Shown here piece after piece: positions 384 through 64,000 of a stretch of 64,000 bases of DNA (positions are counted from its first letter, which is position 1; every line of letters begins with the position of its first letter). The stretch is from Candidatus Limnocylindrales bacterium. GTDB lineage: Bacteria; Chloroflexota; Limnocylindria; Limnocylindrales; CSP1-4. Position numbers and translations under genes: made by a program. Under the pieces are notes generated by a model. That model saw only the letters and a list, made by a program, of their open reading frames with translations. It had not been told where the DNA came from and made no database searches. The stretch covers positions 6,655 through 70,654 of the forward strand of contig DASUFO010000035.1 of the NCBI GenBank assembly GCA_036274475.1, given 5' to 3'.

Positions 384-392
384 TCGTCGCTC

Positions 393-3015: not shown

Positions 3016-3022
3016 CGGCCGC

Positions 3023-5250: not shown

Positions 5251-5979
5251 ATGATCCATGAAGTCGACCAGCTGCTCGAGAAGCTGGTGAAGAAGGACGC
5301 GCTCAACGGCTCGTCCGTCGAGCTCGTGTTCGACGCGCCGACCAAGGACTGGGTCGCCCGACGGAGCGGCCCCGCCGTCGACCTGTACCTCTACGACATC
5401 CGCGAGGATCTCGAGCGGCGGGTGCCGGCCTGGGAGGACAAGAAGGACGCCGCCGGCGAGCGGACGACGGATCGCCGCCTCCCGCCCCGGCGCTACCGTC
5501 TCGCGTACCTCGTGACCGCGTGGACCCAGCGTCCGGAGGACGAGCACCGCCTGCTGTCGGCGCTCCTCGGCTGCTTCATCCGGAACGCCATGCTCAAGCC
5601 CGACGAACTCGAGGGAGCGCTCGCCGAGCCCGACCTGCCGATCTACATCGACGTCGCCCAGCCGCCGTCGCAGGACCGCTCGCTCGCGGACGTCTGGTCG
5701 GCGCTCGGCGGCGAGCTGAAGCCGTCGCTCGACGTGATCGTGACGGCGCCGATGGTCGTCTCCCGCAGCGCGCCGTACGGACCGCCGGTCCTCATCGGCC
5801 CGTCGCTCGGGATCGCAGCCGTGGGCGGGCCCAACGAAATCATCGAGGCGACGTCACGGGGCAAGCCCAGGCGGACGAACCGGCGGCTCGAGCCGCTGCC
5901 CGAAGAGACCGTCCCGAAACACGCGAAGGACGACGACCCGGGCCTGAGGCTCCGCGTTCGCGGCCTGCGCGCGGGCTGA
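5251..5979 (+). CDS. DUF4255 (Pvc16/Afp16-like) tail terminator/cap protein.
   Basis: The ATG at 5251 lies inside track ORF 4864..5979. Sequence: MIHEVDQLLEKLVKKDALNGSSVELVFDAPTKDWVARRSGPAVDLYLYDIREDLERR..., the typical DUF4255 N-domain motif (vdLyLYdi.E...R). Confidence 0.85.
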   Translation: MIHEVDQLLEKLVKKDALNGSSVELVFDAPTKDWVARRSGPAVDLYLYDIREDLERRVPAWEDKKDAAGERTTDRRLPPRRYRLAYLVTAWTQRPEDEHRLLSALLGCFIRNAMLKPDELEGALAEPDLPIYIDVAQPPSQDRSLADVWSALGGELKPSLDVIVTAPMVVSRSAPYGPPVLIGPSLGIAAVGGPNEIIEATSRGKPRRTNRRLEPLPEETVPKHAKDDDPGLRLRVRGLRAG

Positions 5980-5991
5980 CGGCGGGCCGGC

Positions 5992-21514: not shown

Positions 21515-21711
21515 ACCGGCGAGGCCGCCCCAATGGACAACCGGATATCACGCCGGAAACACCCGGGTGATTCCGTGCGAAAACGAGATACATCGGCGAT
21601 ATGGGCGCTGTACAGTGCGGGTCCTGCCGCTTCGTCGTGGTACGCCCGGTCGCCCAGAGGGTCCAACAGGAGGGACGGTCGACCGGTTCGTCAGTCAGGA
21701 GGGTTCTGGCG

Positions 21712-24700
21712 ATGCCTCGTCGCGCGCTCGCGGTCGTTGCCGCGATTCTGTTGGTGGTGGGTCAGGCCCAGTCCGCCCTTGCCGGCGCGGCGGCCGCCCG
21801 CGGAACCGGAGGACCGGCGGCATCCGCGCCGATCGGCAAGGGCCTCCTCGAAGCGCTCGACGCGAAGACCGCCGACAAGTTCGTCGTCGAGTTCGCGTCG
21901 AAGGCGGATCTCCGCGCGCCTTCGAAGGTCACCGGTCACGCCGCTCGCGGCAAGGCGGTCATGGATGCGCTCAAGACGAACGCCGGCCGGGCGCAGGCCG
22001 AGGGCCTGGCGCTCGCCAAGCGGAACGGCGCCAGGGCGACCAGCTTCTGGCTCGTCAACGAGATGGTCGTTCAGGGCGATTCCAGGCTCGCTAAGGCCTT
22101 TGCCCAGCTCCGGGGCGTGACGAGCGTCCGGGCGGTCAAGGAATACCCGCTCGTCAAGCCCGTGGAGATGAAGCCCGCGGACACGACGCCGCCGGGCGGC
22201 GGCTCCGAGTGGGGCATCGAGAAGATCCGGGCGCCCGAGGCGTGGGACGAGGGGATCCTCGGCCAGGGCGTGGTCGTCGGCAGCGTCGACACCGGTGTCG
22301 ACTTCACCCACCCGGCGATCGTGAACCAGTACCGGGGCAACAACGGCGACGGTTCGTTCTCCCATGACTACAACTGGTGGGACCCGACCGGCATCTGCGG
22401 CGACGAGCCGTGCGACAACGCCGGCCACGGCACGCACACGATGGGCACGATGGTCGGCGGCGACGGTCCCGGCCCGTTCACGCCCGACGTCGGCGTCGCC
22501 CCGGGCGCACGCTGGATCTCGGCCAAGGGCTGCGAGGACTTCGGCTGTTCCGAGGACGCGCTCCTCTCGTCCGGCCAGTGGATCCTCGCCCCGACGGATC
22601 TGGAGGGCAACAATCCCGATCCGTCGATGCGCCCCGATGTCGTGAACAACTCGTGGGGCAGCGGCCCGGGCGATCCGTTCTACCTCGACATCGTCCAGGG
22701 CTGGCGAGCCGCCGGAATCATCCCGGTCTTCTCGTCGGGCAACCCCGGCCCGTTCTGCGGCGAGGGCGGCTCGCCCGGCGACTTCCTCGAAGTGTTCAGC
22801 GCCGGCGCGACCGACATCGACGACAACATCGCCGACTTCTCCGGCCGCGGCCCGTCGGTCTACGGCAAGGTCAACCCGGACATCAGCGCCCCGGGCGTCG
22901 ACGTCGTTTCGAGCGTCCCCGGAGGCGGCTACGAATCGTTCTCCGGGACGTCGATGGCGGCGCCCCACACGAGCGGCACGATCGCCCTGATCCTGTCCGG
23001 CAAGCCGGTCCTGATCGGCGACCCCAACAACTACACCCCGATCACCGACGCGATCCGCGTTACCGCGGTCGACCGCCTCGACGACTCGTGCGGCGGCGAC
23101 GAGGACGGCGATCCGAACAACGTCTACGGCGACGGCCGGATCGACGCCAAGGAAGCAGTCGACCTGATCGCCTCCGGCGGGACGCTCGCCGGGACCGTCA
23201 CCGACGATGGGACGGACGCCCCGGTCCCGGGCGCCCAGGTCACCGCCCACGGCGGCTTCCGTGACTTCACGGTCACCACGGACAACGACGGCGAGTACCA
23301 GATGTTCCTGGCCGCCGGCACCTACAACGTCAGCGCCGACGCGTTCGGCTACGCGTCCGACATCGCTTCGGACGTCGAGATCGCCGCGGACGAGACCACG
23401 ACCCAGGACTTCGCGCTCGTCGCGCTGCCCCGGTTCAAGGTCCGCGGCCACGTCCGGAACGCCGAGACGGCGGCCGTGATCCGGTACGCGACCGTGACAG
23501 CGATCGGAACGCCGGTCCCGGCAGCGGTCGCCGACACCGGCGGCTTCTATCAGCTGACGCTGCCCGTCGGTACGTACACCCTTCGGGCGAACGCCGGCGG
23601 GTGCACCGAGAGCGGCGTCGTCGACGGCGTGCAGATCGTGAACAAGAACGTCACCCAGGACTTCGCCCTGGGACGCAAGCTTGATGCGTTCGGTCACGGC
23701 TGCCGCCCAATTGCATTCAACTGGACGGACGCGAAGACCGACACGGCGCTCTTCGGCGACGACTTCGCCGGGCGGCTCAAGCTGCCCTTCGCGTTCAAGT
23801 TCTACGGCGAGTCGTACACCCAGCTCTTCATCTCCGACAACGGCTACCTCACGTTCGGTGGACCCGACCAGTTCAACCCGTTCCCGACGTCGATTCCGTC
23901 GGACGATCCGCCGAACGCCGCGATCTATCCGCTCTGGCGCGACCTGTTCCTCGGCGACACGAGTCAGGTCGCCTACAACCTCACGGGCCTCGTGGGTGCC
24001 CGCAAATACACCGTCGAGTTCACGGACGTCGGCGTTCGCGGCAGCAAGGACACGGTCGATTTCGAGGTCAAGCTCTACGAGACGGGCGAGCGCCTCGACA
24101 TCCTCTATGGCAATAACCCGGCAAATCCCGGCGACGGCCGGGGGGCCACGATCGGAATCGAGAACGCCGACGGCACGGACGCCCTCGAGTTCTCGTTCTC
24201 CGACTCGCTCCTGACGCCCAACAGTGCGTTCCGCTACGAACCGATGCCGTCGGGCATCATCCGCGGCACGATCCGCGACGAGAACGACCTCGAGCCGATC
24301 AAGGGCGCGACCGTGAAAGCCGTGCCTGGCCTCGCATCGACGACGACGGCCGCCGACGGCACGTACTCGCTGCGCGTCTACCCGGGCACCTACCAGGTCT
24401 CGTACCAGGCCCAGGGCTACAAGTCCGAAACCATCTCCGTCCCCGTCCCCGATGGCGTTGTGCGCGTTCGAAACCGGACGCTCGCAGCACCGATTCCCAC
24501 GGCCGATCCGCCATCGGTCGAGGTCGAGCTCGACTACGGTGCCGATCCGGTCACCCGGGCGCTGACGCTCGGCAATGACGGCGGTGCACCCCTTGTCTTC
24601 GAGGCCAAGGAACGCAGCCGCGGCTCGTCGGCACCGCCGCTCCCCGGCGGCGAGGTCGCCGGGACGGGTGTCTTCAGCCAGGACGTCAAGGCATCGGTCG

Positions 24701-27552
24701 AGATGTCCGTGAACGGCGGCGGCACGAAGATCGCCCACCCCAGGGCGTACACCTGGACCGCCGCCCATCCTGCGGCCGACATGTCGGTCCTCGTCTACGT
24801 GGACGACCCGATCCATGCGGCGCCGGACACGTACGTCGATCAGGCCCTCCAGCGCCTGGGCCTCTCGTACACCGCCCACTACGAAGGCGACTTCGACGGG
24901 TTCCAGGCAGACCTGACGTCAGGCGAATGGGACCTCGTCATCTTCGACGACGAGAACTACCTGCCGTTCGACTTCAGCATCTTCGACGACCTCAACGCGT
25001 ACGTCGAGAACGGCGGCCGCCTTGTGTTTGCAACATGGGTCGTCGACTTCGAACCGGACCACCCGCTGTTCACGAATCTCGGGTTCGGGTTCTCCGACGA
25101 CATCTTCGAGCAGCCCCAGCCGGTCTTCTGGTGGCAGCCCGATCATCCGGCATTCACCTTCCCCGAGGAGGCGCCGGAACAGACCGACGTCCAGGCGATC
25201 GGATTCGGAATCAACGGCCAGCGCGGCGACCCGCTCGAGGGCGCCACTGCGATCGGCGGCTACACGACGCCTGGACCCGATGACGGTCAGGCGACGCTCA
25301 TCCTCGCGAACGAGGAGCGAACGGCGTTCCGCGGCTTCTTCGATGCCGTGAACGACGCCGACCTCGACGGCGACGACATTCCCGACGGTGTCGAGCTCTG
25401 GGAGAACCTCGCGTTCGGCATCGGCCAGGGCTTCTTCACGGACGTGCCATGGCTCTCCGAGAGTCCGCAGGCGGGGACGGTCGGCAGCCACAAGACGAAG
25501 CCAATCACGCTGACGATCGGCGATGCCAGCCTCGCCCCCGGCGAGTACCGCGGCACCGTCGTGTTCCAGACCAACGCCCCGAAGCCGCGCACGGTCTCGG
25601 TCGACGTGACGCTGACGGTCACGCTGCCCGAATCGTGGGGTGGCCTGACCGGTGTCGTGACCGACGCCCACACCGATGAGCCCATCGGCGGCGTCGACGT
25701 CACGCTCCACAGCGAATGGAACGGCTCGCCGCTCGACCAGACAGCGACGACCGACGCCGACGGCGGCTACACGCTGCTCGGTCCGAGCGGGACGTGGTCG
25801 CTCGAGTTCGCGAAGGGCGGCTACGTCGGCGAGACCCGCGACGAGGAGGTCGAGGCCGGAGCCACCCGGAACGACGTCAACGCTGCCCTCCACCAGGATG
25901 TGCCGCACGGCGTCGTCGAGGGCGGTCCGTTCCACTTCGTCCTCACCGACGGCCGGACGGGCTCCGGCACGATCACGCTCACGAACCCTGCCGGCCACGA
26001 GGACCTCACGTTCGAGGTCGGCGAGGTCAATCTCGATCCACAGGAGTCGGCGGTGATCGCCGGCGTCACAAAGCGGACGCTCGCCGTGCCATCGGCATCG
26101 GCGAAGCCGGCAACCTCGACGAAGGGCCTCAGTCGGCCGTCCGTCAAGGTTCCGCCCTCCATCCACGCCGACGGCGACGTCCTTGCCAGCTGGCCGGCGG
26201 AAGGCGTCAACACGCCGTGGGGCGTCGGGTTCACCGGCAACGTCTGGCTCAGCAACGCCTTCGGCGACGAAGACCTCTGCGGGTTCTCGCCGCCGTGCAT
26301 GTCGACCGAGTTCCAGACCGACGGCACGCCCACGGGCAACTCGTTCGAGTCCGACTGGATCGAGGCGTTCGGTGGGGACATGGCCTACGACGCCGGCCGG
26401 GACCTCCTCTGGCAGGTGAACGTCGGCGGCGACAACGGCATCTATGGCCTCGACCCGTCCGACGGCTCGGTCCAGGACGTGATCACCGGCAGTCCGTGGG
26501 ACAACGTCGACCAGCGCGGCCTGGCGTACGACCCGGGCACCGACACGTTCTACATCGGCGGCTGGAACGAGGGCGTCGTCTACCACATCGCCGGCCTCGG
26601 CTGGCCGACCCCGGGCGAGACGCTCGATCAGTGCAACCCCGCCGATCCGAACATCTCCGGTCTCGCCTGGAACAGCTCGTTCGGGCTGCTCTGGGAGGCC
26701 ACGAACAGTGACACCGACACGATCTATCTCCTCGATCCGGCGAACTGCGACACGCTCCGCGCGATCGACCATCCGTCGCCGGGCTTCAACGGCGCGGGCC
26801 TCGAGCTCGACGCCCAAGGCAACCTGTGGACGGTCTCGCAGAACGACGGCCTGGCCTACAACATCGAGTCCGGGCTGCCGACCTTCAGCGACGTGCCGTG
26901 GATGACCGTCGAGCCCGAGTCCGGCTCGGTCGCGCCCGACAGTCAGCAGGATCTGACGGTCACCGTCGACGCGACCGGTCTCGAGCCGGGCGTCCACCGC
27001 GGGATCGTCATCCTCCAGACGAACGATCCGGCTCTGGGCAACGTCCAGGTCCCGGTCGTGCTCACCGTCCCGGCCTACCAGCAGGGCATCAACGCCGGCG
27101 GCGCCGAGTACACGGATCCCGCTACCGGCGTCGTGTACGCCACCGACCAGTCGTTCTTCCTCGGCAGCTTCGGCTACGCGGGCGGTTCCACCGGATCCAC
27201 CGCCACCGATATCGCCGGCACCACGCGTGACGCCCTGTACCAGGACCAGCGGCTCGACATGTCCGCCTATCGGTTCACGGTCCCGAACGGCATCTATCAG
27301 GTCGACCTGAACTTTGCCGAGATCGAGGGCGCCGACGAAGGTGATCGTGTCTTCAGCGTCTGGCTCGAAGGCACCGGCGTCATGCGCAATCTCGACGTCG
27401 TCGAAGCGTCGGGCGGTCCGAACATCGCCTACGACCGGACGTTCCTGATCGAGGTCACGGACGGCCGGCTCGACATCTCGTTCGACGACGTGAGCGGCCT
27501 GCCGATCGTCAACGCCATCCTCGTGACGGAGGTTCCGACCGGCAGTCCGTAA
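21712..27552 (+). CDS. Giant secreted subtilisin-like (S8) serine protease with multiple beta-sandwich domains and a C-terminal malectin-like carbohydrate-binding domain.
   Basis: ATG at 21712 with AGGAGGG upstream. Signal peptide MPRRALAVVAAILLVVGQAQSALAGA, followed by an I9-like propeptide. Catalytic residues: D (VVVGSVDTGVD), H (AGHGTHTMGT), N (NNSWG), S (SGTSMAAPHTSG). Repeated CarboxypepD_reg-like modules (GTVTDDGTDAPVPGAQV...YNVSADAFGY). The C-terminus GINAGGAEYTD...YRFTVPNGIYQVDLNFAE...FSVWLEG is malectin-like. 1946 aa. Confidence 0.9.
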   Translation: MPRRALAVVAAILLVVGQAQSALAGAAAARGTGGPAASAPIGKGLLEALDAKTADKFVVEFASKADLRAPSKVTGHAARGKAVMDALKTNAGRAQAEGLALAKRNGARATSFWLVNEMVVQGDSRLAKAFAQLRGVTSVRAVKEYPLVKPVEMKPADTTPPGGGSEWGIEKIRAPEAWDEGILGQGVVVGSVDTGVDFTHPAIVNQYRGNNGDGSFSHDYNWWDPTGICGDEPCDNAGHGTHTMGTMVGGDGPGPFTPDVGVAPGARWISAKGCEDFGCSEDALLSSGQWILAPTDLEGNNPDPSMRPDVVNNSWGSGPGDPFYLDIVQGWRAAGIIPVFSSGNPGPFCGEGGSPGDFLEVFSAGATDIDDNIADFSGRGPSVYGKVNPDISAPGVDVVSSVPGGGYESFSGTSMAAPHTSGTIALILSGKPVLIGDPNNYTPITDAIRVTAVDRLDDSCGGDEDGDPNNVYGDGRIDAKEAVDLIASGGTLAGTVTDDGTDAPVPGAQVTAHGGFRDFTVTTDNDGEYQMFLAAGTYNVSADAFGYASDIASDVEIAADETTTQDFALVALPRFKVRGHVRNAETAAVIRYATVTAIGTPVPAAVADTGGFYQLTLPVGTYTLRANAGGCTESGVVDGVQIVNKNVTQDFALGRKLDAFGHGCRPIAFNWTDAKTDTALFGDDFAGRLKLPFAFKFYGESYTQLFISDNGYLTFGGPDQFNPFPTSIPSDDPPNAAIYPLWRDLFLGDTSQVAYNLTGLVGARKYTVEFTDVGVRGSKDTVDFEVKLYETGERLDILYGNNPANPGDGRGATIGIENADGTDALEFSFSDSLLTPNSAFRYEPMPSGIIRGTIRDENDLEPIKGATVKAVPGLASTTTAADGTYSLRVYPGTYQVSYQAQGYKSETISVPVPDGVVRVRNRTLAAPIPTADPPSVEVELDYGADPVTRALTLGNDGGAPLVFEAKERSRGSSAPPLPGGEVAGTGVFSQDVKASVEMSVNGGGTKIAHPRAYTWTAAHPAADMSVLVYVDDPIHAAPDTYVDQALQRLGLSYTAHYEGDFDGFQADLTSGEWDLVIFDDENYLPFDFSIFDDLNAYVENGGRLVFATWVVDFEPDHPLFTNLGFGFSDDIFEQPQPVFWWQPDHPAFTFPEEAPEQTDVQAIGFGINGQRGDPLEGATAIGGYTTPGPDDGQATLILANEERTAFRGFFDAVNDADLDGDDIPDGVELWENLAFGIGQGFFTDVPWLSESPQAGTVGSHKTKPITLTIGDASLAPGEYRGTVVFQTNAPKPRTVSVDVTLTVTLPESWGGLTGVVTDAHTDEPIGGVDVTLHSEWNGSPLDQTATTDADGGYTLLGPSGTWSLEFAKGGYVGETRDEEVEAGATRNDVNAALHQDVPHGVVEGGPFHFVLTDGRTGSGTITLTNPAGHEDLTFEVGEVNLDPQESAVIAGVTKRTLAVPSASAKPATSTKGLSRPSVKVPPSIHADGDVLASWPAEGVNTPWGVGFTGNVWLSNAFGDEDLCGFSPPCMSTEFQTDGTPTGNSFESDWIEAFGGDMAYDAGRDLLWQVNVGGDNGIYGLDPSDGSVQDVITGSPWDNVDQRGLAYDPGTDTFYIGGWNEGVVYHIAGLGWPTPGETLDQCNPADPNISGLAWNSSFGLLWEATNSDTDTIYLLDPANCDTLRAIDHPSPGFNGAGLELDAQGNLWTVSQNDGLAYNIESGLPTFSDVPWMTVEPESGSVAPDSQQDLTVTVDATGLEPGVHRGIVILQTNDPALGNVQVPVVLTVPAYQQGINAGGAEYTDPATGVVYATDQSFFLGSFGYAGGSTGSTATDIAGTTRDALYQDQRLDMSAYRFTVPNGIYQVDLNFAEIEGADEGDRVFSVWLEGTGVMRNLDVVEASGGPNIAYDRTFLIEVTDGRLDISFDDVSGLPIVNAILVTEVPTGSP

Positions 27553-43222: not shown

Positions 43223-43308
43223 TGTCAATACCCGGTGGGGGTATTGACATCGAAGGAGGATCGCGGTGGTATCCTCCGTACGTCCGGCTTGTCAAGACTT
43301 GACAAGCC
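43223..43308 (+). promoter_or_regulatory. Three consecutive perfect inverted repeats in the dnaG leader / DUF4386 3' region.
   Basis: IR1: TGTCAATACCC-N5-GGGTATTGACA (43223-43249). IR2: GGAGGAT-N9-ATCCTCC (43255-43277). IR3: GGCTTGTCAAG-A-CTTGACAAGCC (43286-43308). All three were read directly from the sequence. IR1 and IR3 each contain TTGACA. Confidence 0.6.
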
Positions 43309-43360
43309 CATTCGCATGCCCGGGTGGCACTGCAGCCATGGGCGAGCGGGGAGGAGCGGT

Positions 43361-45253
43361 TTGGCGGTCGGCGTCGCAGCCGAAGTCAAGAGCAAGCTCA
43401 GCGTCGTCGACGTCGTCGGCGAGACGGTCCAGCTGAAGAAGGCCGGGACCACGTACAAGGGGCTGTGCCCGTTCCACGGCGAGAAGACGCCGTCGTTCAC
43501 CGTGACGCCCGGGCGGGAGTCGTGGAAGTGCTTCGGCTGCGGCGAGGGCGGCGACATCTTCAGCTTCGTCATGAAGCGCGACGGCCTGTCATTCCCCGAG
43601 GCGCTCAAGGTGCTCGCCGCGAAGGCGGGCGTCGAGCTCGACGAGCGAACCTCGCGCGAAGACGCCCGCAAGAAGCGCCTCCGCGACGTGATGGAGAGCG
43701 CGATCGCGTTCTACCACGCGGTCCTGACCTCCTCCAAGGTGGGTGCCGCGGCGCTCGAATATCTCCATGGACGGGGTTTCACCGACGAGACGATCGCGAA
43801 GCACCAGCTGGGATTTGCGCCGGGGGGCTGGGACACGCTCGCCCGACAGCTCGCCTCGCGCCGCGACGTTCGCGGTGAGGAGCTCGTGGAGGTCGGACTC
43901 GCCCAGCCTCGCCAGTCGGGCCGCGGCGGCGTCTACGACCGGTTCCGCGAGCGGGTGATCTTCCCGATCCGCGACGCGAACGGCTCGCCGGTCGGGCTCG
44001 GCGGGCGGCTGCTGACCGGGGAAGGCCCCAAGTATTTGAACTCCCCGGCGACGCCGCTCTTCGACAAGAGCCGGACGCTCTACCTCGTCGACAAGGCGAA
44101 GGGACCGATCCGGAAGGGCGGCCAGGCGGTGATCGTCGAGGGCTACACGGACGCGCTCATGGCCCACCAGGCGGGCTTCGACAACGTCGTCGCGTCGCTC
44201 GGCACGGCGCTCACGCCGGGCCAGGTCGCGCTGCTCACGCGCTACGCGAAGAAGATCGCGCTCGCGTACGACGTCGACGCGGCCGGCGAGAAGGCCGGGA
44301 CGTTCGGGGCCACGGCGCTCGAGGCGTTGATCGGTCAGCTGGCGGCGGCCGACACCGGCGTCGAGCTCGACGAGGTGCGGGTCGTTCGGCTGCCGGACGG
44401 GAAGGACCCCGACGAGGTCGTCCGCGAGACGCCCGACCTGTGGCGCGAGGAGGTCCGGACGGCGCAGCCGATCGTCGATTACCTGATCGATTTCCACGCT
44501 CGCCAGGTCGATCTCAAGACGCCGGGCGGAAAGGCCCGCTTCGTCGACGCCATCGCACCGACGCTTCGGGCGATCCCGAACCCGGTGATGCGCGACGCGT
44601 ATCTCCAGGCCATCCACGCCCGCTCGGGGATCGAGGAGCGGTCGATCCTCGAAGTCCTTCACCGCCGCCCCGCCGCTCTGGAGCACGCCCAAGGTCGAAT
44701 CACCGCGGACGCCGTCCTCGCCTCGGCCGACGCCCTGCCCGTCGATCAGATCCTGCGCTCGATCACCCCGGTCGAGGAGGAGCTCCTGCGGCTGCTGCTG
44801 CTCGCCCCGGAGCAGCAGCTCCGGGCGGTCGACGAGCTGGGGCCGGACCAGCTGCCCTCGACGCCGGCTCGCGAGCTGTTCCGGGCGATCGTCCTGCAGC
44901 GGGCGCCGAACGACCAGGGCATCCGGCCGCCGTTCTCGATGTCGGCGCTGATCGCCGGTCTCGACGACGAGACCCGGGCGACGGCCCAGGCGATCCTGGC
45001 CCGCGGCGGGCCGGACCTCAGCCAGGTGCCATCGGATCGCGTCGCCTACGCGGTCGATCGGTGCCTGCTCCAGCTCGAGCGGGCAAAGCTCGACGAGCGA
45101 GCCGACTGGGTCGCCGCGGAGCTGATCGCGGCCGAGAGCCGCGGCGACCGCGACGTCGTCGGCCAATTGCTCGTTCTTCAACGCCAGAACAACGAGGCTC
45201 GCCGATCGGTCGATCGGCAGATCGAACAAGCAACCGTGCTCGTCCGCGCATGA
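43361..45253 (+). CDS. dnaG: DNA primase.
   Basis: The preferred start is TTG at 43361 with GGAGGAG 4-5 nt upstream (alternatives: ATG 43316, or track start 43235). CHC2 zinc finger CPFHGEKTPSFTV...WKCFGCGEGGD. TOPRIM motifs VIVEGYTDAL and DVDAAGEKA. Confidence 0.9.
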   Translation: MAVGVAAEVKSKLSVVDVVGETVQLKKAGTTYKGLCPFHGEKTPSFTVTPGRESWKCFGCGEGGDIFSFVMKRDGLSFPEALKVLAAKAGVELDERTSREDARKKRLRDVMESAIAFYHAVLTSSKVGAAALEYLHGRGFTDETIAKHQLGFAPGGWDTLARQLASRRDVRGEELVEVGLAQPRQSGRGGVYDRFRERVIFPIRDANGSPVGLGGRLLTGEGPKYLNSPATPLFDKSRTLYLVDKAKGPIRKGGQAVIVEGYTDALMAHQAGFDNVVASLGTALTPGQVALLTRYAKKIALAYDVDAAGEKAGTFGATALEALIGQLAAADTGVELDEVRVVRLPDGKDPDEVVRETPDLWREEVRTAQPIVDYLIDFHARQVDLKTPGGKARFVDAIAPTLRAIPNPVMRDAYLQAIHARSGIEERSILEVLHRRPAALEHAQGRITADAVLASADALPVDQILRSITPVEEELLRLLLLAPEQQLRAVDELGPDQLPSTPARELFRAIVLQRAPNDQGIRPPFSMSALIAGLDDETRATAQAILARGGPDLSQVPSDRVAYAVDRCLLQLERAKLDERADWVAAELIAAESRGDRDVVGQLLVLQRQNNEARRSVDRQIEQATVLVRA

Positions 45254-45301
45254 CGCAGTTCATCCAGCACTCATCCATCGCCACCAGCCGAGGAGGTTCT
45301 C

Positions 45302-47026
<1,725 letters not shown>

Positions 47027-48875: not shown

Positions 48876-48950
48876 TCCGGCGTAGCTCAGTGGTAGAGCG
48901 GGCGGCTGTTAACCGCTTGGTCGTAGGTTCGAATCCTACCGCCGGAGCCA
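48876..48950 (+). tRNA. tRNA-Asn (anticodon GTT), CCA encoded.
   Basis: Folded by hand. Acceptor stem TCCGGCG/CGCCGGA; D stem GCTC/GAGC; anticodon stem GGCGG/CCGCT with loop CTGTTAA; T stem GTAGG/CCTAC with loop TTCGAAT; discriminator G plus CCA. Confidence 0.93.
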
Positions 48951-56213: not shown

Positions 56214-57488
56214 ATGCACCTGGGAGACCCGATCGAGACTGACCCCGTTCCGAACGATGATCGATACCGCCTCGTGACGATCCCGGCGACGGACGGGTTG
56301 TTTCGTCACACCGTCGATCGACATGTCCGCCTGGCCCGGCGGCGCGGCACCACGCTCCGGGCCGTTCGGCGGGCGCTTCGTCAACGGTATCCGGACGCCG
56401 AGATGAGTCGCCAGCGTCACTGCCGCGTCCAGGATCAAACAGTCGAGTTGTGGTTCGCCTATCGCGATGGCCGAGCCGAGCCCGTTGCCCCAGCGCACGG
56501 CTGGTGGGACGACCCTGGCCTGGCCCGCGTCGTGCTCAATGCGTCGGGTCGACTGACCAGACCGAATGCCGCCTTTCGGCACCTCCTTGACTTGCCGCCC
56601 GGCAGCGGGCCGATGACCTTGCGCGGCCTGCTCTCGCCGGAGCTACTCGAGGAGCTGTTGCGGGAGTGGAAGCGGCGACGGCCCGGCGAGGCGTGGTCCG
56701 GATCCCTGCCGTTGCGTCATCCGAGGGGCGGCCGGCGCCTCGACGTCGAGTTCCATATCCAGTCCGACACGGAGCAGCGGTTCAAGGTGACGATCCGCAG
56801 CCTTGCCGATCGCGACCGCGCCAACGACTGGTTGGCGCTCCGGCACTCGGCGCTCGGGTTGGTGCCGACCGCGCTCCTGAGCGACCTCTATGAGAGTGGC
56901 ACACGGCGGAAGCTCGGGTCCGGAGAGCGCTTGGCGAAGTCATTGACGGACGACGCGTGGGTCGTTCTGGTTACCGCCGGGATCGTGCGACTGTACGTAG
57001 CCATGGATGGCTCCGAGCCCACGCTGGCGTACGGCAATCGCGGCTCGCTGTTCGGGACCCACGCGTTCGTGCCGGACCAGGTACTGCTGGTGGGTCTGCA
57101 GGCGGTCACCCCGAGCGTGGTGCTGCAGCTCAGCACGCGACGAGTGGACGAGCTGGCGATGTCGAACCCGGGGTTCCTGCGGGCGATCTTCGGCGATGTG
57201 CAACTCCAGCTCCGTGGAGTCATCCGGTCCTTCGCCGAGCACGCCGCCGGAGACCTGCGGCAGCGACTCGCCCGCGAGATCGTGGTCCTCTCGGATCTCC
57301 ACCCGGACGACGGGCTCGTGCCCGTCACGGAGCAGCAGCTTGCCGACGGGATCGGGAGCATCCGGGAATCGGTCGGACGCAGCATCGGCGATTTGCGTCG
57401 TGATGGATCCATCGCGACGACCCGTCACGGTCTCTTGATCCTGGACATGGGACGGCTTCGCAGCACCGGGCAGGTGGCGCTGGAATAG
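56214..57488 (+). CDS. Crp/Fnr-family transcriptional regulator with a ~190-aa N-terminal extension.
   Basis: The C-terminal half has a cNMP-binding-like barrel (VVLVTAGIVRLYVAMDGSEPTLAYGNRGSLFG) and an HTH (VTEQQLADGIGSIRESVGRSIGDLRRDGSI). The N-terminal part is PAS-like at best. Confidence 0.7.
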   Translation: MHLGDPIETDPVPNDDRYRLVTIPATDGLFRHTVDRHVRLARRRGTTLRAVRRALRQRYPDAEMSRQRHCRVQDQTVELWFAYRDGRAEPVAPAHGWWDDPGLARVVLNASGRLTRPNAAFRHLLDLPPGSGPMTLRGLLSPELLEELLREWKRRRPGEAWSGSLPLRHPRGGRRLDVEFHIQSDTEQRFKVTIRSLADRDRANDWLALRHSALGLVPTALLSDLYESGTRRKLGSGERLAKSLTDDAWVVLVTAGIVRLYVAMDGSEPTLAYGNRGSLFGTHAFVPDQVLLVGLQAVTPSVVLQLSTRRVDELAMSNPGFLRAIFGDVQLQLRGVIRSFAEHAAGDLRQRLAREIVVLSDLHPDDGLVPVTEQQLADGIGSIRESVGRSIGDLRRDGSIATTRHGLLILDMGRLRSTGQVALE

Positions 57489-57504: not shown

Positions 57505-57993
57505 TCAATCGTCCTCCTGGACGCGAAGCATCCACGCGGCTTTGTCGAGCTCGCCCACGAGGTCGATCAGGATCGTCTCGGCGACATGATCGATGCCGCG
57601 AATCTCCTTGATGCGAATCAGGTTCGCCTGCGAGACGTGATCGATTCGGGCGAGGACCTCTTTCACCGCCGTTGGCCCGGAAAGCCATCCCACCGGGAAC
57701 GGCTCGAAAGGCGACTCGGAGACCGCGGCCAGGGTCCCGTCCGGGCTCACCTGGAGCGCAGCCAGTCGCTCCGCGATCGCGTCCGCCTTCAGGCGGGCCA
57801 TGTCGGTGATCTCATCGAATTGCGCGTGAAGCGACCGGAAATTCGGGCCGACCACGTTCCAGTGCGCCTGCTTCGCATGAAGACCAAGGTCGATCAGCTC
57901 GACCAGCGAATGCTGGAGACGGAAGGCGACTCCGTTCTCAACCGCGGGACTGAACGTCTTCCGCTTGGTCGCTATCTCGACCATCCTCGTCAC
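57505..57993 (-). CDS. dps: Dps (DNA protection during starvation, ferritin-like).
   Basis: Sequence: LQHSLVELIDLGLHAKQAHWNVVGPNFRSLHAQFDEI...DAIAERL. Confidence 0.88.
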   Translation of the reverse strand: MTRMVEIATKRKTFSPAVENGVAFRLQHSLVELIDLGLHAKQAHWNVVGPNFRSLHAQFDEITDMARLKADAIAERLAALQVSPDGTLAAVSESPFEPFPVGWLSGPTAVKEVLARIDHVSQANLIRIKEIRGIDHVAETILIDLVGELDKAAWMLRVQEDD

Positions 57994-58039: not shown

Positions 58040-58615
58040 CTAGGACAGGGGCGACGGATACGCCGCCGACGTGCCGGTGCCCCGGGCCCGTCCTCGCAAT
58101 CGGAATGCGATCACGAGGAGGAGTGCGCCGGACACGATGGCGAAGGCGCCGATCAGCCAGACGACGGCCAGCGCTCCGGCGCCCGGAAACAGGATGAGCA
58201 CCACCCCGAAGAAGATGGAGACCAGGCCATCGAGCGCGAGCAGCCACTCGCGCCGCAGCACGTCGCGGAGCTGATAGGCCGCCATCAGTTCGATCCCGCC
58301 GGAGACGATCGCCCATGCCGCGATCAGGAGCAGAAGGGCGTACGCCGTGATGCCCGGCAGCGCGAATGCGATGACACCGGCCGCGATGCCGGCTACGCCG
58401 TGGACGACCCGCCACCAGTCGGGTCCGCCGTCAGCCCCGCGACGCAAGCCACGGATGAGCGCCAGGACGCCGTCGACGATCGCGAAGGCGGCGAACAGGA
58501 AGACCAGTGCCAGCAGCGTGATCCCCGGCCAGGCCAGGGCCAGGACGCCGAACACAACGGCGGCCACGCCCTGAAGGGCGATGATCCACCAATCCCGGGA
58601 CATTCGATCCAGCAT
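58040..58615 (-). CDS. HdeD/DUF308-family membrane protein.
   Basis: Sequence: WWIIALQGVAAVVFGVLALAWPGITLLALVFLFAAFAIVDGVLALI, with repeated DUF308 units. GAGGAG RBS. Confidence 0.75.
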   Translation of the reverse strand: MLDRMSRDWWIIALQGVAAVVFGVLALAWPGITLLALVFLFAAFAIVDGVLALIRGLRRGADGGPDWWRVVHGVAGIAAGVIAFALPGITAYALLLLIAAWAIVSGGIELMAAYQLRDVLRREWLLALDGLVSIFFGVVLILFPGAGALAVVWLIGAFAIVSGALLLVIAFRLRGRARGTGTSAAYPSPLS

Positions 58616-58973
58616 GTCGCTCCTCGAGCTGTGTCTGGGGTCCGCAGGATGGATCAGCCGGTCCGTGGGGCGCAGTAACCGGCGATACGTGACTTGAAGG
58701 GCGGCGCCACGGCGTACGGCTGCGCGACCTGCGCGCTGCGCGCCCGCGCGTGCGAGTAGCGCCGGTTACTGCCGGACCCGCCGTCCGGCACGTACGGTCC
58801 ACTTGGAAGGAACGCACCGCCACGGCGCCAGCACCCGACGCCGGATATCGGCATAGGTGAGATGACCTGGGAGCGCCCCCAGCACCCGGCGCGACCAGGT
58901 CCCGACCTCAGCCCGGTCCGTCAGTCATCGCCTCTGCGCGCTGGAAGAAAGGAGGCATGTCCCGATCGACCTC

Positions 58974-59813
58974 TTGTGGCTGTTCATCATCATCACGACG
59001 CTCCAGCCCGTGGTCCGCCAGCGCCTGCTCGAGGCCCAGCGGATGTGGCTGTTCCGGAAGTTCGAGGAACAGCGCAAGAGCCGGACGATCGGTCTCATCC
59101 ACCGCCAGGAAACGATGAGCTTCCTCGGCTTCCCGATCGCCCGCTACATCGACATCGAGGATTCGGAGCGCGTGCTTCGGGCGATCCAGCTCACCGATCC
59201 GACCGTCCCGATCGACTTGATCCTCCACACGCCCGGCGGCCTCGTTTTGGCCGCAGATCAGATCGCCCATGCCCTGCGGCGTCACCGCGCCAGGATCACC
59301 GTGTTCGTGCCGCACTACGCGATGAGCGGCGGAACGCTCATCGCGCTCGCTGCCGACGAGATCGTCATGGCCGAGAACGCCGTGCTCGGTCCGCTCGATC
59401 CGCAGCTCGGCCAGTCGCCGGCCGCATCCATCCTGAAGGTCGTCGAGCGCAAACCGGTCGCACGGATCGACGACTCGACGCTCATTCAGGCGGACATGGC
59501 CGGAAAGGCGCTCCGGCAGGTCGAGGCGTCTGTCCGCAGCCTCCTCGCGGCGCGCATGACCGAGGACCGCGCGGCGGCCGTCGCCGAGCAACTCAGCTGT
59601 GGGACGTGGACGCACGACTACCCGATCTCGGTCAGCGAAGCGCGCGACCTGGGGCTGCCGATCAGCACCGACATGCCGGTCCTGATCTTCGACCTGATGC
59701 AGCTCTACCGGCAGACCAGTCAGCGCCGGCCGTCCGTCGAGTTCATCCCGCAGCCCTACGGACCGGAGCCGCGTGACGGCGGGAAGCCGGCGGGCGGGGG
59801 ACGAGACCGATGA
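58974..59813 (+). CDS. ClpP-fold serine protease of the SDH (serine dehydrogenase proteinase / SppA-like) family.
   Basis: TTG start per the track (AAAGGAGG lies 18 nt upstream, so the exact start is uncertain). Sequence: WLFIIITTLQPVVRQRLL...IDLILHTPGGLVLAADQIA...VPHYAMSGGTLIALAADEIVM. ATGA overlap with grpE. Confidence 0.75.
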   Translation: MWLFIIITTLQPVVRQRLLEAQRMWLFRKFEEQRKSRTIGLIHRQETMSFLGFPIARYIDIEDSERVLRAIQLTDPTVPIDLILHTPGGLVLAADQIAHALRRHRARITVFVPHYAMSGGTLIALAADEIVMAENAVLGPLDPQLGQSPAASILKVVERKPVARIDDSTLIQADMAGKALRQVEASVRSLLAARMTEDRAAAVAEQLSCGTWTHDYPISVSEARDLGLPISTDMPVLIFDLMQLYRQTSQRRPSVEFIPQPYGPEPRDGGKPAGGGRDR

Positions 59814-60403
59814 CCGATCCGGCTCAGAAGGAACGGCCGCAGACCGACGGGGCGGCCGGACCGTCGACCGACGAGCTGCTCGACCTGCTGCGTCGGGAGC
59901 GAGCCGACTTCCGCAACTATCAGCGGCGCGTCGCCGAACAGCGGGCGGCCGACGCGGAAGGCGCCCGTGGCCGCGTTCTCGAACCGCTCTTCCCGCTGCT
60001 CGACGACCTGCGGCGCGCATTCGCCGAGGTCCCGCCCGACCTCGCGGACGACCCGTGGGCCCAGGGCATCGCGATGCTCCGCTCGCAGCTCGACACGACG
60101 CTCGCCGGGCTGGGGCTCGAGCCAGTCGGGACGGTTGGTGAGCCGTTCGACCCGACGCGCCACGAGGCCGTCCACCACGAACCGGACCCGACGGCAGACG
60201 GCCAGGTCGTTGACCTCGTGATCCGCCCGGGCTATCGCCTCGGCGGGCGGCTGCTGCGACCCGCCGAGGTCGTCGTCCGGGGCCCCCTCGTCGAGGGTGG
60301 CCGCGGATCGGCCTCGGAATCGACAGGCCCGTCGGACGACGCCCGGCGTCCAGAACCGACCCGACATGGACGTTCCGACGACGTCCCCAACGCTGGAGGC
60401 TGA
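59810..60403 (+). CDS. grpE: Nucleotide exchange factor GrpE.
   Basis: Sequence: LLRRERADFRNYQRRV...LLDDLRRA...GEPFDPTRHEAV...VIRPGYRLGGRLLRPAEVVV. Confidence 0.9.
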   Translation: MTDPAQKERPQTDGAAGPSTDELLDLLRRERADFRNYQRRVAEQRAADAEGARGRVLEPLFPLLDDLRRAFAEVPPDLADDPWAQGIAMLRSQLDTTLAGLGLEPVGTVGEPFDPTRHEAVHHEPDPTADGQVVDLVIRPGYRLGGRLLRPAEVVVRGPLVEGGRGSASESTGPSDDARRPEPTRHGRSDDVPNAGG

Positions 60404-60406
60404 ATC

Positions 60407-62311
60407 ATGGCAAAGGTCATCGGAATCGACCTCGGAACGACCAACTCCGCGATGGCGGTCCTCGAAGCGGGCCAGCCGACGATTCTCGAGAACGCCGAGG
60501 GCAGCCGCATCACGCCGTCCGTGGTCGCGATCGACCCGAAGACAGGCCAGCGCCTGGTCGGGACGCTCGCCCGGCGGCAGGCGGTCACGAACCCCGAGAA
60601 CACGATCTTCTCGATCAAACGCTTCATGGGCCGCAAGTTCGACGATCCGATCGTGCAGGAGGCGATCAAGCGCGTCCCCTACAAGGTGGCCAGGGCGGCC
60701 AACGGGGACGTCCGCGTCGTCATGGGCGGCAAGGAGTATTCGCCGCCCGAGATCTCGGCGATGATCCTCCAGAAGCTGCGCGAGGACGCCGAGGCCAAGC
60801 TTGGCGACAAGGTCAAGCAGGCCGTCATCACCGTGCCGGCCTACTTCAACGATGCCCAGCGCCAGGCGACCAAGGATGCCGGCCAGATCGCCGGGCTCGA
60901 GGTCCTCCGCATCGTCAACGAGCCGACGGCGGCGTCGCTCGCGTATGGCCTCGACAAGGTCGGGCGGGACGAGGAGATCGCCGTCTACGACCTGGGCGGC
61001 GGCACGTTCGACATCTCCGTGCTGCGCGTCGGCGAAGGGGTCATCGAGGTGCTCGCGACCAACGGCGACACCTTCCTCGGCGGCGACGACTTCGACCGCG
61101 CGATCATGGATTGGCTGATCGCCGAGTTCAAGAAGGACCAGGCCGTCGATCTGAGCGCTGACCGTGTCGCGCTTCAACGCGTCCGCGAAGCAGCCGAGAA
61201 GGCGAAGATCGAACTCTCGTCGACCCAGTCGACCGAGATCAACCTGCCGTTCATCAGCGCGAACGCCTCGGGCCCCATCCACCTCCAGATCACGCTCACC
61301 CGGTCCAAGCTCGAGCAGCTGACCGAGGGGCTCATCCAGCGCACTCGTGACCCGGTCGAGAAGGCACTCGCCGATGCGAAGGTCACGGCGTCCGATATCG
61401 ATGAGGTGGTGCTCGTCGGCGGCCAGACGCGCATGCCGGCGGTCCAGGAGCTGGTGAAGAAGCTGTTCGCCGGGAAGGAGCCGCACAAGGGCGTCAACCC
61501 CGACGAGGTGGTCGCCGCCGGGGCGGCAGTCCAGGCCGGCGTCCTGCAGGGCGACGTCAAGGACGTGCTCCTGCTCGACGTGACGCCGCTGTCCCTCGGC
61601 GTGGAGACGAAGGGCGGCGTCATGACCGTCCTGATCCCGCGCAACACGACGATCCCGACGCGCAAGAGCGAGATCTTCTCGACCGCGGAGGACAACCAGA
61701 GCCAGGTCGAGATCCACGTCCTCCAGGGCGAGCGGCCGGTGGCCTCGGAGAACAAGAGCCTCGGTCGGTTCATCCTCGACGGCATTCCCCCGGCCCCGCG
61801 CGGGACACCGCAGATCGAGGTCACATTCGACATCGACGCCAACGGGATCCTCCACGTCTCCGCCAGGGAGACCGCGAGCGGCAAAGAGCAGAAGGTCGTC
61901 ATCGAGCCGGCGAGCGGCCTATCGCAGGCCGAGATCGACCGGATGGTCAAGGAAGCCGAGCAGCATGCGTCCGAAGATGCCCGGCGGCGCGAGGAGGTCG
62001 AACTCAAGAACCGGGCCGACAACCTGGCCTACGCGGCCGAAAAGCTCCTTCGTGAGAACGGGGATCGGCTGCCGAGCGAGCTGAAGCTCGAGCTCGACGA
62101 CGGGGCGCAGGCCGTGCGCCGGGCGCTGGATCAGAACGACGTTGCGGAGCTCCGGTCCAGGGTCCCGGCGCTGGAGACCGCGATGCAACGAGCTGAATCG
62201 GCCGCGACCCGTGAGCCAGTCGGCGCGGCAGCCGGGGGCGGCCGTGGCGACGGTGGCGGCGGCGAGGAGCCACCGCCCGGAACGGTCGAAGGCGAGTTCC
62301 GGGAGATGTGA
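60407..62311 (+). CDS. dnaK: Hsp70 chaperone DnaK.
   Basis: Sequence: [14 protein letters not shown]...[10 protein letters not shown]...[10 protein letters not shown]...[13 protein letters not shown]. 634 aa. Confidence 0.97.
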
Positions 62312-62469
62312 TTGATCGCGGCGCTCCCCAGGCGGCGGCGGACATCCAGCCGAATGCCAGCAGGAGGATCCCCTGACTGAGAGACAAGCGCAGGACCGAG
62401 GCGGCATTCGTCCGGGTCGAGAGCCGGATCATGGTGCCGCCATCGCCCTGGTGATGCCGCCTTCACCAC

Positions 62470-62519
62470 GGGCCGCGAGACAGCCCCCCGGGTGCTCGGT
62501 GCGGCATGTCTCGCGGCCC
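62470..62519 (+). promoter_or_regulatory. Strong stem-loop between dnaK and the downstream gene (attenuator/terminator or processing site).
   Basis: Perfect 13-bp stem GGGCCGCGAGACA / TGTCTCGCGGCCC, paired base by base. The 24-nt loop can add 3 more G-C pairs. It lies 159 nt after the dnaK stop and 38 nt before the ATG at 62558. Confidence 0.55.
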
Positions 62520-62557
62520 ACTCACCGAGCGGCCCGGCGGTCAGCGGGCACCCCGCG

Positions 62558-63715
62558 ATGACCGTCGCGAGCCGTGCCGCACCGCCGGTCAGCCGCGCCG
62601 ACGTGGAGCGACTGGTCAGATTCGACGGCCGAGGCGCTCGCGTCCTCAGCGTCTACCTCGACATCCACCCGGAGCGGCAGGTCACGCGCTCCTATCGGAT
62701 CGTGCTCGAGGATCTCGCGAGGGCCGCCCGCGACCGGCTGGACGAACAGGCTCGCCTCGAGCTCGATGCGGAGGTCGCCAGGGTCCAGGCGTGGCTGGAG
62801 AAGGAGGAACCACCTCGCGCACGCGGACTGGCGATCTTCTCCTCATCGGCGACGGATCTGTGGGAAACCTATCGCCTGCCCGCGCCGGTTCCCGACCGCC
62901 TGTCGTTCGAGACCCACCCGGTCATCATCCCGCTGCTCAGCCTGATCGAGGACTACGAGCGCTACGTCGTCGCGCTCGTTGACAAGGAATCGGCCCGCCT
63001 GTTGACGGTCTTCGAGGGCCGGATCGAGTCGGTCGAGACGTTCAGCGACGACGTCCCGGCCAAGCACGATACGGGTGGCCCGGCCCAGGCGCGGCTGCAG
63101 CGGCACCACGAGGACCATGTGCTCAGGCACGTGAAGCGTGTCGTGCAGCGGCTGGCCGAGCGGCTGCGCGACGCCGAGTTCGACCGCCTCATCCTCGCCG
63201 GGCCCGAGGAGGCGACCACCGAGGTCCGGCATCACCTGCCCCATGAGCTGGCTCGTCGCCTCGTCGCCACAGTCCCGGCCGAGATGTTCGCCACCGATGA
63301 CGAGATCCTCCGGATCACGCTCGAGATCGAGCAGCGGGCCGAACGCGAGAGCGAGGACGCGATCGTCACGGCAGTGATTGATGCGTCGCGCTCGAACGGC
63401 CCGGGCGCCTGCGGGATGTTCTCAACGCTGGAGGCAGTCTGGCTGCGCCAGGTCCGGACCCTGGTCCTCGCCGATGGGCTCAGTGCGTCGGGCAGCGAGT
63501 GCCCAGTGGACGAGGGGCTGTACCCGGACCCGCCCGGGCCGTGCCCGATGTGCGGCGCCGAGACGGTCGCGGTCGCCGACATCGTCGACCGGGCCGCCCA
63601 GCTGACGATCGAACAGGACGGCGACGTCGAGATCGTCCACGAGCGGGCAGCGCAGCGGTTGCGCGATGCCTGCGACGGCATGGGCGCCGTCCTCCGCTTC
63701 CGGCTGCATGCCTGA
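62558..63715 (+). CDS. Archaeo-eukaryotic release factor (eRF1/Pelota/Vms1)-like protein, bacterial aeRF-type.
   Basis: ATG at 62558 (track start 62492 lies inside the hairpin). Sequence: [12 protein letters not shown]...GLAIFSS...LWETYRLP...[14 protein letters not shown], then the loop [24 protein letters not shown] where eRF1 carries GGQ. C-terminal domain with ECPVD...CPMCG. The overall pattern matches bacterial eRF1-like families as I remember them. Confidence 0.65.
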
Positions 63716-64000
63716 TGGAATTCCAGGACTACTACGCCGTGCTAGGGGTGCCCAAGACCGCCACCGAGAAGCAGATCCGGACCGCCTACCGCAAGCTCGC
63801 GAGGCAGCACCATCCGGACGTCAATCCAGGGAACAAGGAGGCCGAGGAGCGCTTCAAGCAGATCAACGAGGCGTACGAGGTCCTGTCCGACCCCGACAAG
63901 CGCAAGAAGTACGACGAGGTGGGATCGCGCTGGCGCGAGTACGAGCAGTGGCAGCGGACCCAGGGCGCCGCCGGCGCGGCGCAGCCGTTCGAATGGGAAG
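63715..64000 (+). CDS. J-domain co-chaperone (DnaJ/CbpA-like); only the N-terminal 95 codons are in the window.
   Basis: Its ATG shares one nt with the previous TGA (TGATG). Sequence: [68 protein letters not shown] (HPD motif). The gene is truncated by the window edge. Confidence 0.9.

Follow-up and report, generated by a model that had tools for sequence, protein, structure and literature searches.

A baeRF family 10 protein encoded in a heat-shock gene cluster of Chloroflexota: a candidate Balon-type A-site factor

What is a relative of the archaeal and eukaryotic release factors doing beside the Hsp70 gene of a bacterium? The question is raised by a stretch of 64,000 nucleotides (nt) from a Candidatus Limnocylindrales bacterium of the Chloroflexota (GCA_036274475.1, contig DASUFO010000035.1, positions 6,655 to 70,654), which we call the window. 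Between dnaK and a J-protein gene lies a gene, here baeRF10, that a sequence-only reading of the window had assigned to a module for ribosome rescue, in which a stalled peptide would be released and handed to a chaperone or protease. The same reading called for profile and structure searches and for a survey of dnaK operons. We find that the protein belongs to the aeRF1 superfamily and, within it, to Pfam baeRF_family10. Our analysis favors, with a probability of about 0.55, a Balon-type A-site factor of the heat-shock regulon that would pause or protect ribosomes. The gene itself is placed as follows:

62558..63715, + strand: baeRF10, 385 amino acids (aa); ATG at 62558, 385 codons and a stop codon, TGA at 63713-63715

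This open reading frame (ORF) is a real gene and not a chance ORF, because its GC content at third codon positions (GC3) is 0.88 (window GC, 70%), 186 homologues with up to 87% identity were found, and its Pfam match is above threshold. An alternative start, GTG at 62492 (407 aa), is rejected, since the homologues are 384-385 aa long and begin at the position equivalent to the ATG.

The family is given by Pfam. The best-scoring baeRF model is family 10 (PF18854), which matches aa 121-259 at 1e-31 with 110.6 bits against a cut-off of 27.1, and the second is family 2 with 44.3 bits. Weaker matches are to other baeRF families, to acVLRF1 (35.8 bits, above the cut-off of 27.1) and to eRF1_2 (5e-8). 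An AlphaFold2 model built with 38 homologues has a three-domain fold, with a predicted local distance difference test (pLDDT) score of 90.8 and a predicted template-modelling (TM) score, pTM, of 0.84. Foldseek comparison of the model with the PDB gave these matches:

aRF1, 4af1: E 5e-23, TM 0.49-0.52, top by E-value
Balon/Msmeg1130, 8v9j: E 9e-23, TM 0.74-0.78 (8v9j/8v9l)
eRF1: E 1e-21, TM about 0.5
Balon of P. urativorans, 8rd8: E 2e-20, TM 0.69-0.73
Rv2629, 8v9k: E 4.8e-17, TM 0.65-0.68
Pelota: TM 0.2-0.4

The alignments to aRF1/eRF1 extend over some 390 columns, and the best superposition of the model is on ribosome-bound Balon structures. A profile of the 38 homologues, run against PDB sequences, finds Msmeg1130 best (E 1e-21, full length) and aRF1 second (1.5e-16). 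By hhalign, aa 29-381 match the Msmeg1130 subfamily (20 proteins) with a probability of 99.4% and an identity of 20%. Msmeg1130 itself, its sequence pieced together from the profile-search alignments, scores 126 bits on Pfam baeRF_family10. By these scores the window protein is a distant relative within Msmeg1130's Pfam family. Public names disagree: for JGI these proteins are 'peptide chain release factor subunit 1', for PGAP a 51%-identical homologue (P0071) is a 'Vms1/Ankzf1 family peptidyl-tRNA hydrolase', and proteins of the Msmeg1130 type appear as 'VLRF1 family aeRF1-type release factor' and also as 'ribosome hibernation factor'.

The relationship matters for function. Balon-type proteins are aeRF1-like bacterial proteins that occupy the A site of vacant as well as translating ribosomes, together with EF-Tu-GDP (PMC10901736). 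Balon keeps the catalytic centre inert, and the nascent chain is preserved, not released (PMC10901736). Msmeg1130 is reported to be such an A-site hibernation factor, without a functional GGQ (PMC10901736). The parts of the window protein that bear on the comparison are:

62558..62917, + strand: N-terminal domain, aa 1-120, from alignments to 4af1 and Msmeg1130 and from conservation
62918..63334, + strand: middle domain (eRF1_2/RNase-H-like), aa 121-259, from Pfam baeRF_family10 and eRF1_2 (5e-8)
63074..63088, + strand: GGPAQ loop, G173-Q177, at the site of GGQ in aRF1
63098..63130, + strand: His-rich helix, Q181-R-H183-H184-E-D-H187-V-L-R-H191, near invariant in the subfamily
63335..63712, + strand: C-terminal domain (eRF1_3/Pelota-like), aa 260-385, from TIGR03676 (aa 15-382) and Foldseek matches to eRF1 C-domains
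63500..63553, + strand: zinc-ribbon insert of the C domain, C315-P-V-D318 ... C329-P-M-C332 (ECPVD...CPMCG)

The N domain carries the family motif LSVYLD-x-x-P-E-R-Q..RSYRI. Balon-type factors are marked by an HP motif at the decoding centre and by a bL27-trap loop; the window protein has H37-P38, but the family consensus at these two residues is [DE]-P. Since the NIKS position of 4af1 is occupied by R-D-R-L-D (family consensus R-[ED]-x-L-D), the domain has no stop-codon motif. This bears on the simplest reading of the fold, namely that the protein is an aRF1 of bacteria and reads stop codons during stress. The NCBIfam model of aRF1/eRF1, TIGR03676, does align from aa 15 to 382, 4af1 is the top structural match by E-value, and both the zinc ribbon and the VPxKHxxGG context of the loop are aRF1-like. 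But TIGR03676 scores 76.7 bits, below its cut-off of 234.7, NIKS is replaced and GGQ is lost, and proteins of the baeRF-1 type never displaced RF1/RF2 (Burroughs and Aravind; PMC6514570). We consider stop-codon-dependent termination very improbable.

The loop poses a harder problem. The segment encoded at 63068-63097 aligns with aRF1 VPGKHKMGGQSQRRYER so that GGP falls on GGQ, and the context VP-x-KH-x-x-GG is common to both proteins. Conservation was counted in 111 full-length relatives, and the counts per residue that follow refer to these. G173 and G174 are kept in 109 and Q177 in 105, and the length of the loop is almost fixed. Residue 175 varies (P in 56, W in 25, L in 11, V in 7), and residue 176 is A or S. 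Among the homologues listed, GGQ is found in 1 of 120; across the family the loop is GG-x-S-Q or GG-x-A-Q. The helix that follows has the subfamily pattern Q181-R-H183-H184-E-x-H187-V-x-x-H191, and in the alignments this His ladder is absent from aRF1/eRF1 and from the Msmeg1130 subfamily. The latter has the loop A-P-H-E-R-A-G-Q (G174 in 119/119, Q175 in 104/119), with a Gly-rich insert in most members. Conservation of the loop as proof of catalysis is rejected, as the loop of the Msmeg1130 subfamily is equally conserved.

Two groups of relatives depart from the pattern. Relatives L024-L045 (Thermodesulfovibrio/Nitrospirota) form a subgroup with the loop KKGGWFALAEKRYERH, which has no Gln, and keep the His ladder; their loci are an unrelated conserved operon beside an uvrA-like gene, with amidase-, amidohydrolase-, glutamine-amidotransferase- and permease-like genes (judged by eye). 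About 20 Anaerolineae relatives (L047-L079, 27-31% identity) have a longer loop, RGGxSxxGRRGGxAGQT, and an intact zinc ribbon.

Could the loop free a nascent chain? The possibility to be weighed is active rescue, in which the protein would act on a heat-stalled 70S ribosome or on 50S-peptidyl-tRNA, by ester hydrolysis or by 3'-CCA cleavage of the Vms1/ANKZF1 kind, with hand-off to the J-protein/DnaK, ClpB, Lon or the SDH protease. The catalytic group of canonical release factors is the backbone amide of the GGQ Gln (PMC6742477), an assignment that this paper, in the passage concerned, credits to Korostelev 2008 and Santos 2013. Pro at the site of the catalytic Gln argues against canonical GGQ chemistry, because Pro has no backbone NH, and the variability of the position in the family (P, W, L or V) points the same way. 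Vms1/ANKZF1 works in a different register and can remove the CCA end of the tRNA, and the product end left by ANKZF1 is a 2',3'-cyclic phosphate (PMC7026593). According to Burroughs and Aravind (2019), family 10 keeps a conserved Gln and is possibly catalytic (PMC6514570); in the window protein this Gln is found as Q177. The retained glycines and Gln, the near-fixed loop length, the agreement of the loop motif with the GGxSQ of aVLRF-1 and acVLRF-1 and the above-threshold acVLRF1 match all speak for active rescue. Against it stand Msmeg1130, the closest characterised relative, which has a conserved AGQ and is nevertheless reported to be a non-releasing hibernation factor, and the architecture: the three-domain, tRNA-mimic build is that of Balon or aRF1 on the 70S ribosome, not that of acVLRF-1, which has no N domain. 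We regard active rescue as possible but doubtful.

The comparison with the Vms1/ANKZF1 and VLRF-1 proteins is instructive in both directions. Likeness lies in the Gly-Gly-x-small-Gln loop (GGxSQ or GxuQ), in the acVLRF1 match and in the link to protein quality control. However, acVLRF-1 has a short N-terminal extension and no stop-codon-binding N domain, and aVLRF-1 has no Pelota domain (PMC6514570), whereas the window protein keeps both the N-terminal decoding-type and the C-terminal Pelota-type domains. Its family-10 score is three times its acVLRF1 score, and it has no N-terminal extension, ankyrin repeats or VIM parts. Of the label 'eRF1/Pelota/Vms1-like' given from the sequence alone, aeRF1 superfamily membership thus stands, by the Foldseek matches to aRF1 and Balon and by Pfam, while Vms1-likeness applies to the loop motif only, not to the architecture. 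The peptide motifs that the reading quoted lie where it put them, its loop does fall on the GGQ of aRF1, and its Cys insert in the C-terminal domain aligns on the zinc-ribbon insert of 4af1. The release role fared worse, as the closest characterised relatives are Balon A-site hibernation factors that preserve the nascent chain, and Pro takes the place of the catalytic Gln.

The zinc ribbon is the other mark of the subfamily. C315 and C329 are kept in all 111 relatives and C332 in 109; at position 318, 66 relatives have C and 43 have D, as does the window protein. The site is that of the CPND...CSDCG insert of Halobacterium aRF1 (4af1), and it is a Cys-less hairpin in Msmeg1130. The EF-Tu-binding element of Balon is a hairpin at this site of the C domain (PMC10901736). 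In families of the baeRF-1 type this site holds a zinc ribbon or else an insert of two strands, and Burroughs and Aravind proposed that the latter may be a degenerate zinc ribbon (PMC6514570). The subfamily marked by zinc ribbon and GG-x-[A/S]-Q loop is a distinct one, and it is the most aRF1-like among the bacterial homologues. With aRF1/eRF1 it shares the three-domain fold, the VP-x-KH-x-x-GG context and the position of the insert; it differs in that the window protein has no NIKS and has Pro for the GGQ Gln, is bacterial and is encoded in a heat-shock cluster.

We turn to the locus. The genes around baeRF10 are:

56214-57488, + strand: Crp-like regulator, an upstream stress gene (Pfam)
57505-57993, - strand: Dps, an upstream stress gene (Pfam)
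58040-58615, - strand: HdeD/DUF308, an upstream stress gene (Pfam)
58974..59813, + strand: SDH-family ClpP-fold serine protease, first gene of the operon (PF01972, 7e-109; NF047768, 411 bits against a cut-off of 250)
59810..60403, + strand: grpE (Pfam GrpE, 1.5e-29)
60407..62311, + strand: dnaK (Hsp70), 634 aa, from its translation, a 90% identical gene in relative L001, and orthologues in L082 and L089 that match Pfam HSP70
62312..62557, + strand: dnaK-baeRF10 spacer, 246 nt, from comparison with relatives
63715..64000, + strand: 5' part of the J-protein gene, class B (CbpA-like), cut by the end of the window (Pfam DnaJ, 8e-31; HPD motif)

The protease gene overlaps grpE by 4 nt, and grpE is 3 nt from dnaK. 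The stop codon of baeRF10 and the ATG of the J-protein gene (63715-63717) share one base, the A of TGATG. In an identical public contig of 2.8 kb (L081) the J-protein gene runs on into DnaJ_C with no zinc-finger domain, and the J-protein is classed as B, or CbpA-like, for that reason. The genes beyond dnaJ lie outside the window and their order is inferred from relatives L082 and L089. The order Crp-like, Dps, HdeD upstream is kept in L001 and L082, and Crp-like and HdeD genes are also upstream in L089. The 385-aa ORF and its one-nt overlap, as first described, are confirmed. The coupling to chaperone genes that was read from them has to be divided: with the J-protein gene it is translational and direct, whereas dnaK, beyond a spacer of 246 nt, is linked by proximity, and co-transcription with it is plausible.

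The spacer has a history of its own. In L001, L002 and L089 a 223-aa BON (OsmY-like) gene lies between dnaK and baeRF10, and L082 has at this site a 44-aa BON remnant and a 253-aa Sigma70_r4_2 protein. The spacer of the window is, as judged from this comparison, the scar of a lost BON gene. Some 115 nt of it are conserved and include a perfect 13-nt inverted repeat (62470-62482 / 62507-62519) that is also kept in L001 and L082; this segment may be an internal element, either regulatory or RNA. An Rfam scan found only a tRNA, the spacer stem-loop matching no known RNA family. Searches of the window for the HAIR (HspR operator) and CIRCE consensus gave nothing beyond chance, and a scan of 58400-64000 found no sigma-70 promoter and no intrinsic terminator on the + strand. 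The 253-aa protein, which has only the Sigma70_r4_2 domain, is encoded directly upstream of baeRF10 in L082 (8511-9272), L004, L010, L013, L020 and L021; its gene overlaps the baeRF10 start in L082, and the two form a conserved pair that is absent from the window. Farther upstream, the divergent intergenic region between the HdeD and SDH-protease genes holds a 17-nt inverted repeat (58672-58688 / 58756-58772; 94% complementary, arms 67 nt apart), which is a candidate operator (e.g., for the adjacent Crp-like regulator) or RNA structure.

Is this arrangement peculiar to one genome? The closest relatives are all from Chloroflexota metagenome-assembled genomes (MAGs) or soil metagenomes, and the same supercluster occurs on L001 (79% identity), L002 (71%) and L082 (79%). 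The gene orders, the first being the longest of these three, are:

L082: Crp-like, Dps (- strand), HdeD (- strand), SDH protease, grpE, dnaK, baeRF10, dnaJ, merR, clpB, Hsp20, Lon, Hsp20, HtrA, BON
L089 (52% identity): Crp, HdeD, Hsp20, Hsp70, BON, baeRF10, dnaJ (1-nt overlap), merR, clpB
L084 and L088 (51-52%): Hsp20, Lon, baeRF10, dnaJ, merR, clpB ... SDH protease
L083 (53%): thioredoxin, baeRF10, Hsp70
L087 (49%): Hsp20, BON, baeRF10, Usp, Usp, Hsp20
L086, 7001-8606 (49%): baeRF10, 5 nt, then a gene for a 143-aa RF-1-domain (ArfB-like) protein

The merR product of L082 is 96 aa long and HspR/CbpM-like. The 1-nt overlap of baeRF10 with the J-protein gene recurs in L001, L082 and L089. Neighbors within 6 kb were counted by tblastn at 34 core loci (those with GG-x-[A/S]-Q) and 53 distant ones. 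At least one heat-shock or proteostasis gene is present at 17 of the 34 core loci and at 29 of the 53 distant ones; DnaK or a J-protein is encoded at 9 core loci, DnaK at 5 and a J-protein at 8. The J-protein gene adjoins a homologue in at least six arrangements, among them baeRF10-dnaJ-merR-clpB, dnaJ-merR-baeRF10 and, in Anaerolineae, dnaJ-htrA-baeRF; these come from Chloroflexota MAGs, one Acidiferrales MAG (L053) and unclassified metagenome contigs. In the ~20 distant Anaerolineae relatives the trio of CbpA-like J-protein, HtrA and baeRF is conserved, ~2.2 kb upstream of the match. Five loci have RtcB as a neighbor, in three cases together with archease; at four actinobacterial loci the neighbor is an ArsA-like ATPase. 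Across loci the neighbors include DnaK, DnaJ, Hsp20, HdeD, BON/OsmY, a sigma-like gene, MarC and RtcB. Thus, the chaperone linkage is recurrent across several lineages and phyla.

The two lines of search called for at the outset gave, then, matches to family 10 and Balon and a DnaK gene near 5 of 34 core loci. The arrangement is not unique to this genome; in several lineages and phyla the family is linked to genes for Hsp70, J-protein, ClpB, Lon, Hsp20 and SDH protease. None of the outcomes that the reading named as refuting it applies. Its remark that such a module had not been described is half true. The neighbors of Balon genes in Fig. 2c of PMC10901736 include DnaK, DnaJ, Hsp20 and HdeD, and the list there also has OsmY, RtcB and MarC, so that the DnaK-linked neighborhood is already published, but only schematically. 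Our literature search brought up no subsequent paper on a Balon subfamily that has the zinc ribbon or retains GG, nor on a functional link between Balon and Hsp70.

Two observations on the neighbors may be added. The SDH-type protease recurs at either end of heat-shock clusters (window, L084, L088, L053, L065), which suggests that it is a regular, little-studied member of the proteostasis regulon. In L086 a protein of the aeRF1 type is paired with a GGQ rescue protein of the bacterial type.

The neighborhood also bears on the choice of mechanism. To the case for active rescue it adds the 1-nt overlap with the J-protein gene in the window, L001, L082 and L089, the ArfB-like gene after the L086 homologue, and RtcB, the 2',3'-cyclic phosphate of ANKZF1 being an RtcB-type end. 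If catalysis did occur, the protein might be a catalytic aeRF1-type factor of the heat-shock regulon that passes freed chains to J-protein/DnaK, ClpB and proteases, a bacterial Vms1-type quality control wired to Hsp70; we judge this fuller scheme to be rather unlikely. Adjacency to the J-protein gene invites another idea. At the A site or factor site, baeRF10 might serve as a docking adaptor that recruits the CbpA-type J-protein, and thereby DnaK, to stressed ribosomes, as an analogue of ribosome-associated Hsp70/J systems; this would be compatible with pausing or with release. The recurrence of the J-protein gene beside baeRF10 in at least six arrangements and the gene overlap in the window lineage and in L089 favor it. 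Yet a J-protein gene is within 6 kb at only 8 of 34 core loci, and Hsp20, BON, Usp, ArsA-like and RtcB neighbors are equally common. The sole fused protein, P0061 (668 aa, baeRF10+DnaJ; L002, 7995-10001), is rejected as a likely frameshift artefact of a long-read MAG, because L002 also splits grpE, dnaK and baeRF10. Such an adaptor role seems quite improbable to us.

There remains the likeness to Balon. Msmeg1130 is in the same Pfam family, the profile homology is full length, and NIKS is absent from the window protein, which superposes on Msmeg1130, Rv2629 and P. urativorans Balon with TM scores of 0.65-0.78. The stress-operon neighbors of baeRF10 loci match the list in PMC10901736 almost exactly. 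Release-factor-like or rescue proteins encoded with stress or repair genes are known elsewhere, in PrfH-RtcB and Hsp15 (a heat-shock protein of ribosome rescue). These are functional analogies only, as their folds are unrelated (a bacterial RF-1 domain and an S4 domain), and homology to baeRF10 is not expected.

How a Balon-type factor might work in this setting can be set out in steps. The gene would be expressed within the heat-shock cluster, whose order in relatives is SDH protease, grpE, dnaK, BON (lost in the window), baeRF10, cbpA-like dnaJ, merR (HspR/CbpM-like) and clpB. Mimicking a tRNA, the protein would enter the A site of the ribosome. Its N domain, which lacks NIKS and so would not read stop codons, would sit at the decoding centre, the loop (GG-x-[A/S]-Q) and the His-rich helix would lie at or near the peptidyl-transferase centre, and the C domain with its zinc ribbon would point toward the factor-binding site and EF-Tu. 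So bound, the factor would pause and shield ribosomes, translating ones included, under proteotoxic stress. Fewer new unfolded chains would then be made while DnaK, the J-protein, ClpB and proteases remove damage. Of this scheme, fold, family, motif conservation, gene order and its recurrence are observed in our analysis; ribosome binding, contact with EF-Tu, induction by heat and a non-catalytic action are what we infer.

Several points weigh against the Balon-type reading. In contrast to the Balons described so far, the window protein retains G173 and G174, a Gln two positions further that is 95% conserved, and a loop of fixed length; the loop of the Msmeg1130 type is A-G-Q and mostly lengthened by a Gly insert, whereas that of the window subfamily is short. 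Burroughs and Aravind held GG-x-S/A-Q to be catalytically competent in VLRF-1 families (PMC6514570). The window subfamily has the His ladder and, in place of the Cys-less EF-Tu-binding hairpin of Balon/Msmeg1130, a zinc ribbon of Cys residues. Identity to Msmeg1130 is only about 17-20%, and the models of known hibernation factors score far below their cut-offs: NF052288 (MSMEG_1130 hibernation factor) 75 bits against 480, NF052289 (Rv2629) 58 against 320, and NF052287 (AOC03_06830) 32.7 against 330. Finally, the ArfB-like pairing in one relative and RtcB in five suggest rescue or repair, not storage.

It should be mentioned what else the window holds. A dnaG primase gene followed by an rpoD-like sigma-70 gene (43235-47026) and a tRNA gene (48876-48947) are present; therefore the heat-shock cluster is in an ordinary chromosomal context, with no obvious mobile element. 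At the other end, a contractile-tail-like cluster (1-8175) has a T4 gp19-type tube gene (3023-3457, - strand), a sheath gene (3538-5547, - strand) and a gene for an ATPase with a winged-helix domain and an AAA domain (5992-8175, + strand); a possible second tube gene (1-383, - strand) is judged from sequence only. The cluster resembles an extracellular contractile injection system, or what is left of a prophage tail. At 21601-27552 is a gene for a 1983-aa S8 subtilase of secreted type, which has multiple repeats of CarboxypepD_reg and carries a malectin domain at its C terminus.

In sum, if the protein is Balon-like, A-site hibernation factors would be part of the classical heat-shock regulon of Chloroflexota and of other phyla. 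Translational pausing would then be tied directly to chaperone induction, which would refine the mechanism described in 2024 and not add a new one. Peptide release by bacterial eRF1 relatives was predicted in 2019, and the retained glycines and Gln, the His ladder and the ancestral zinc ribbon make this subfamily the best place to test it.

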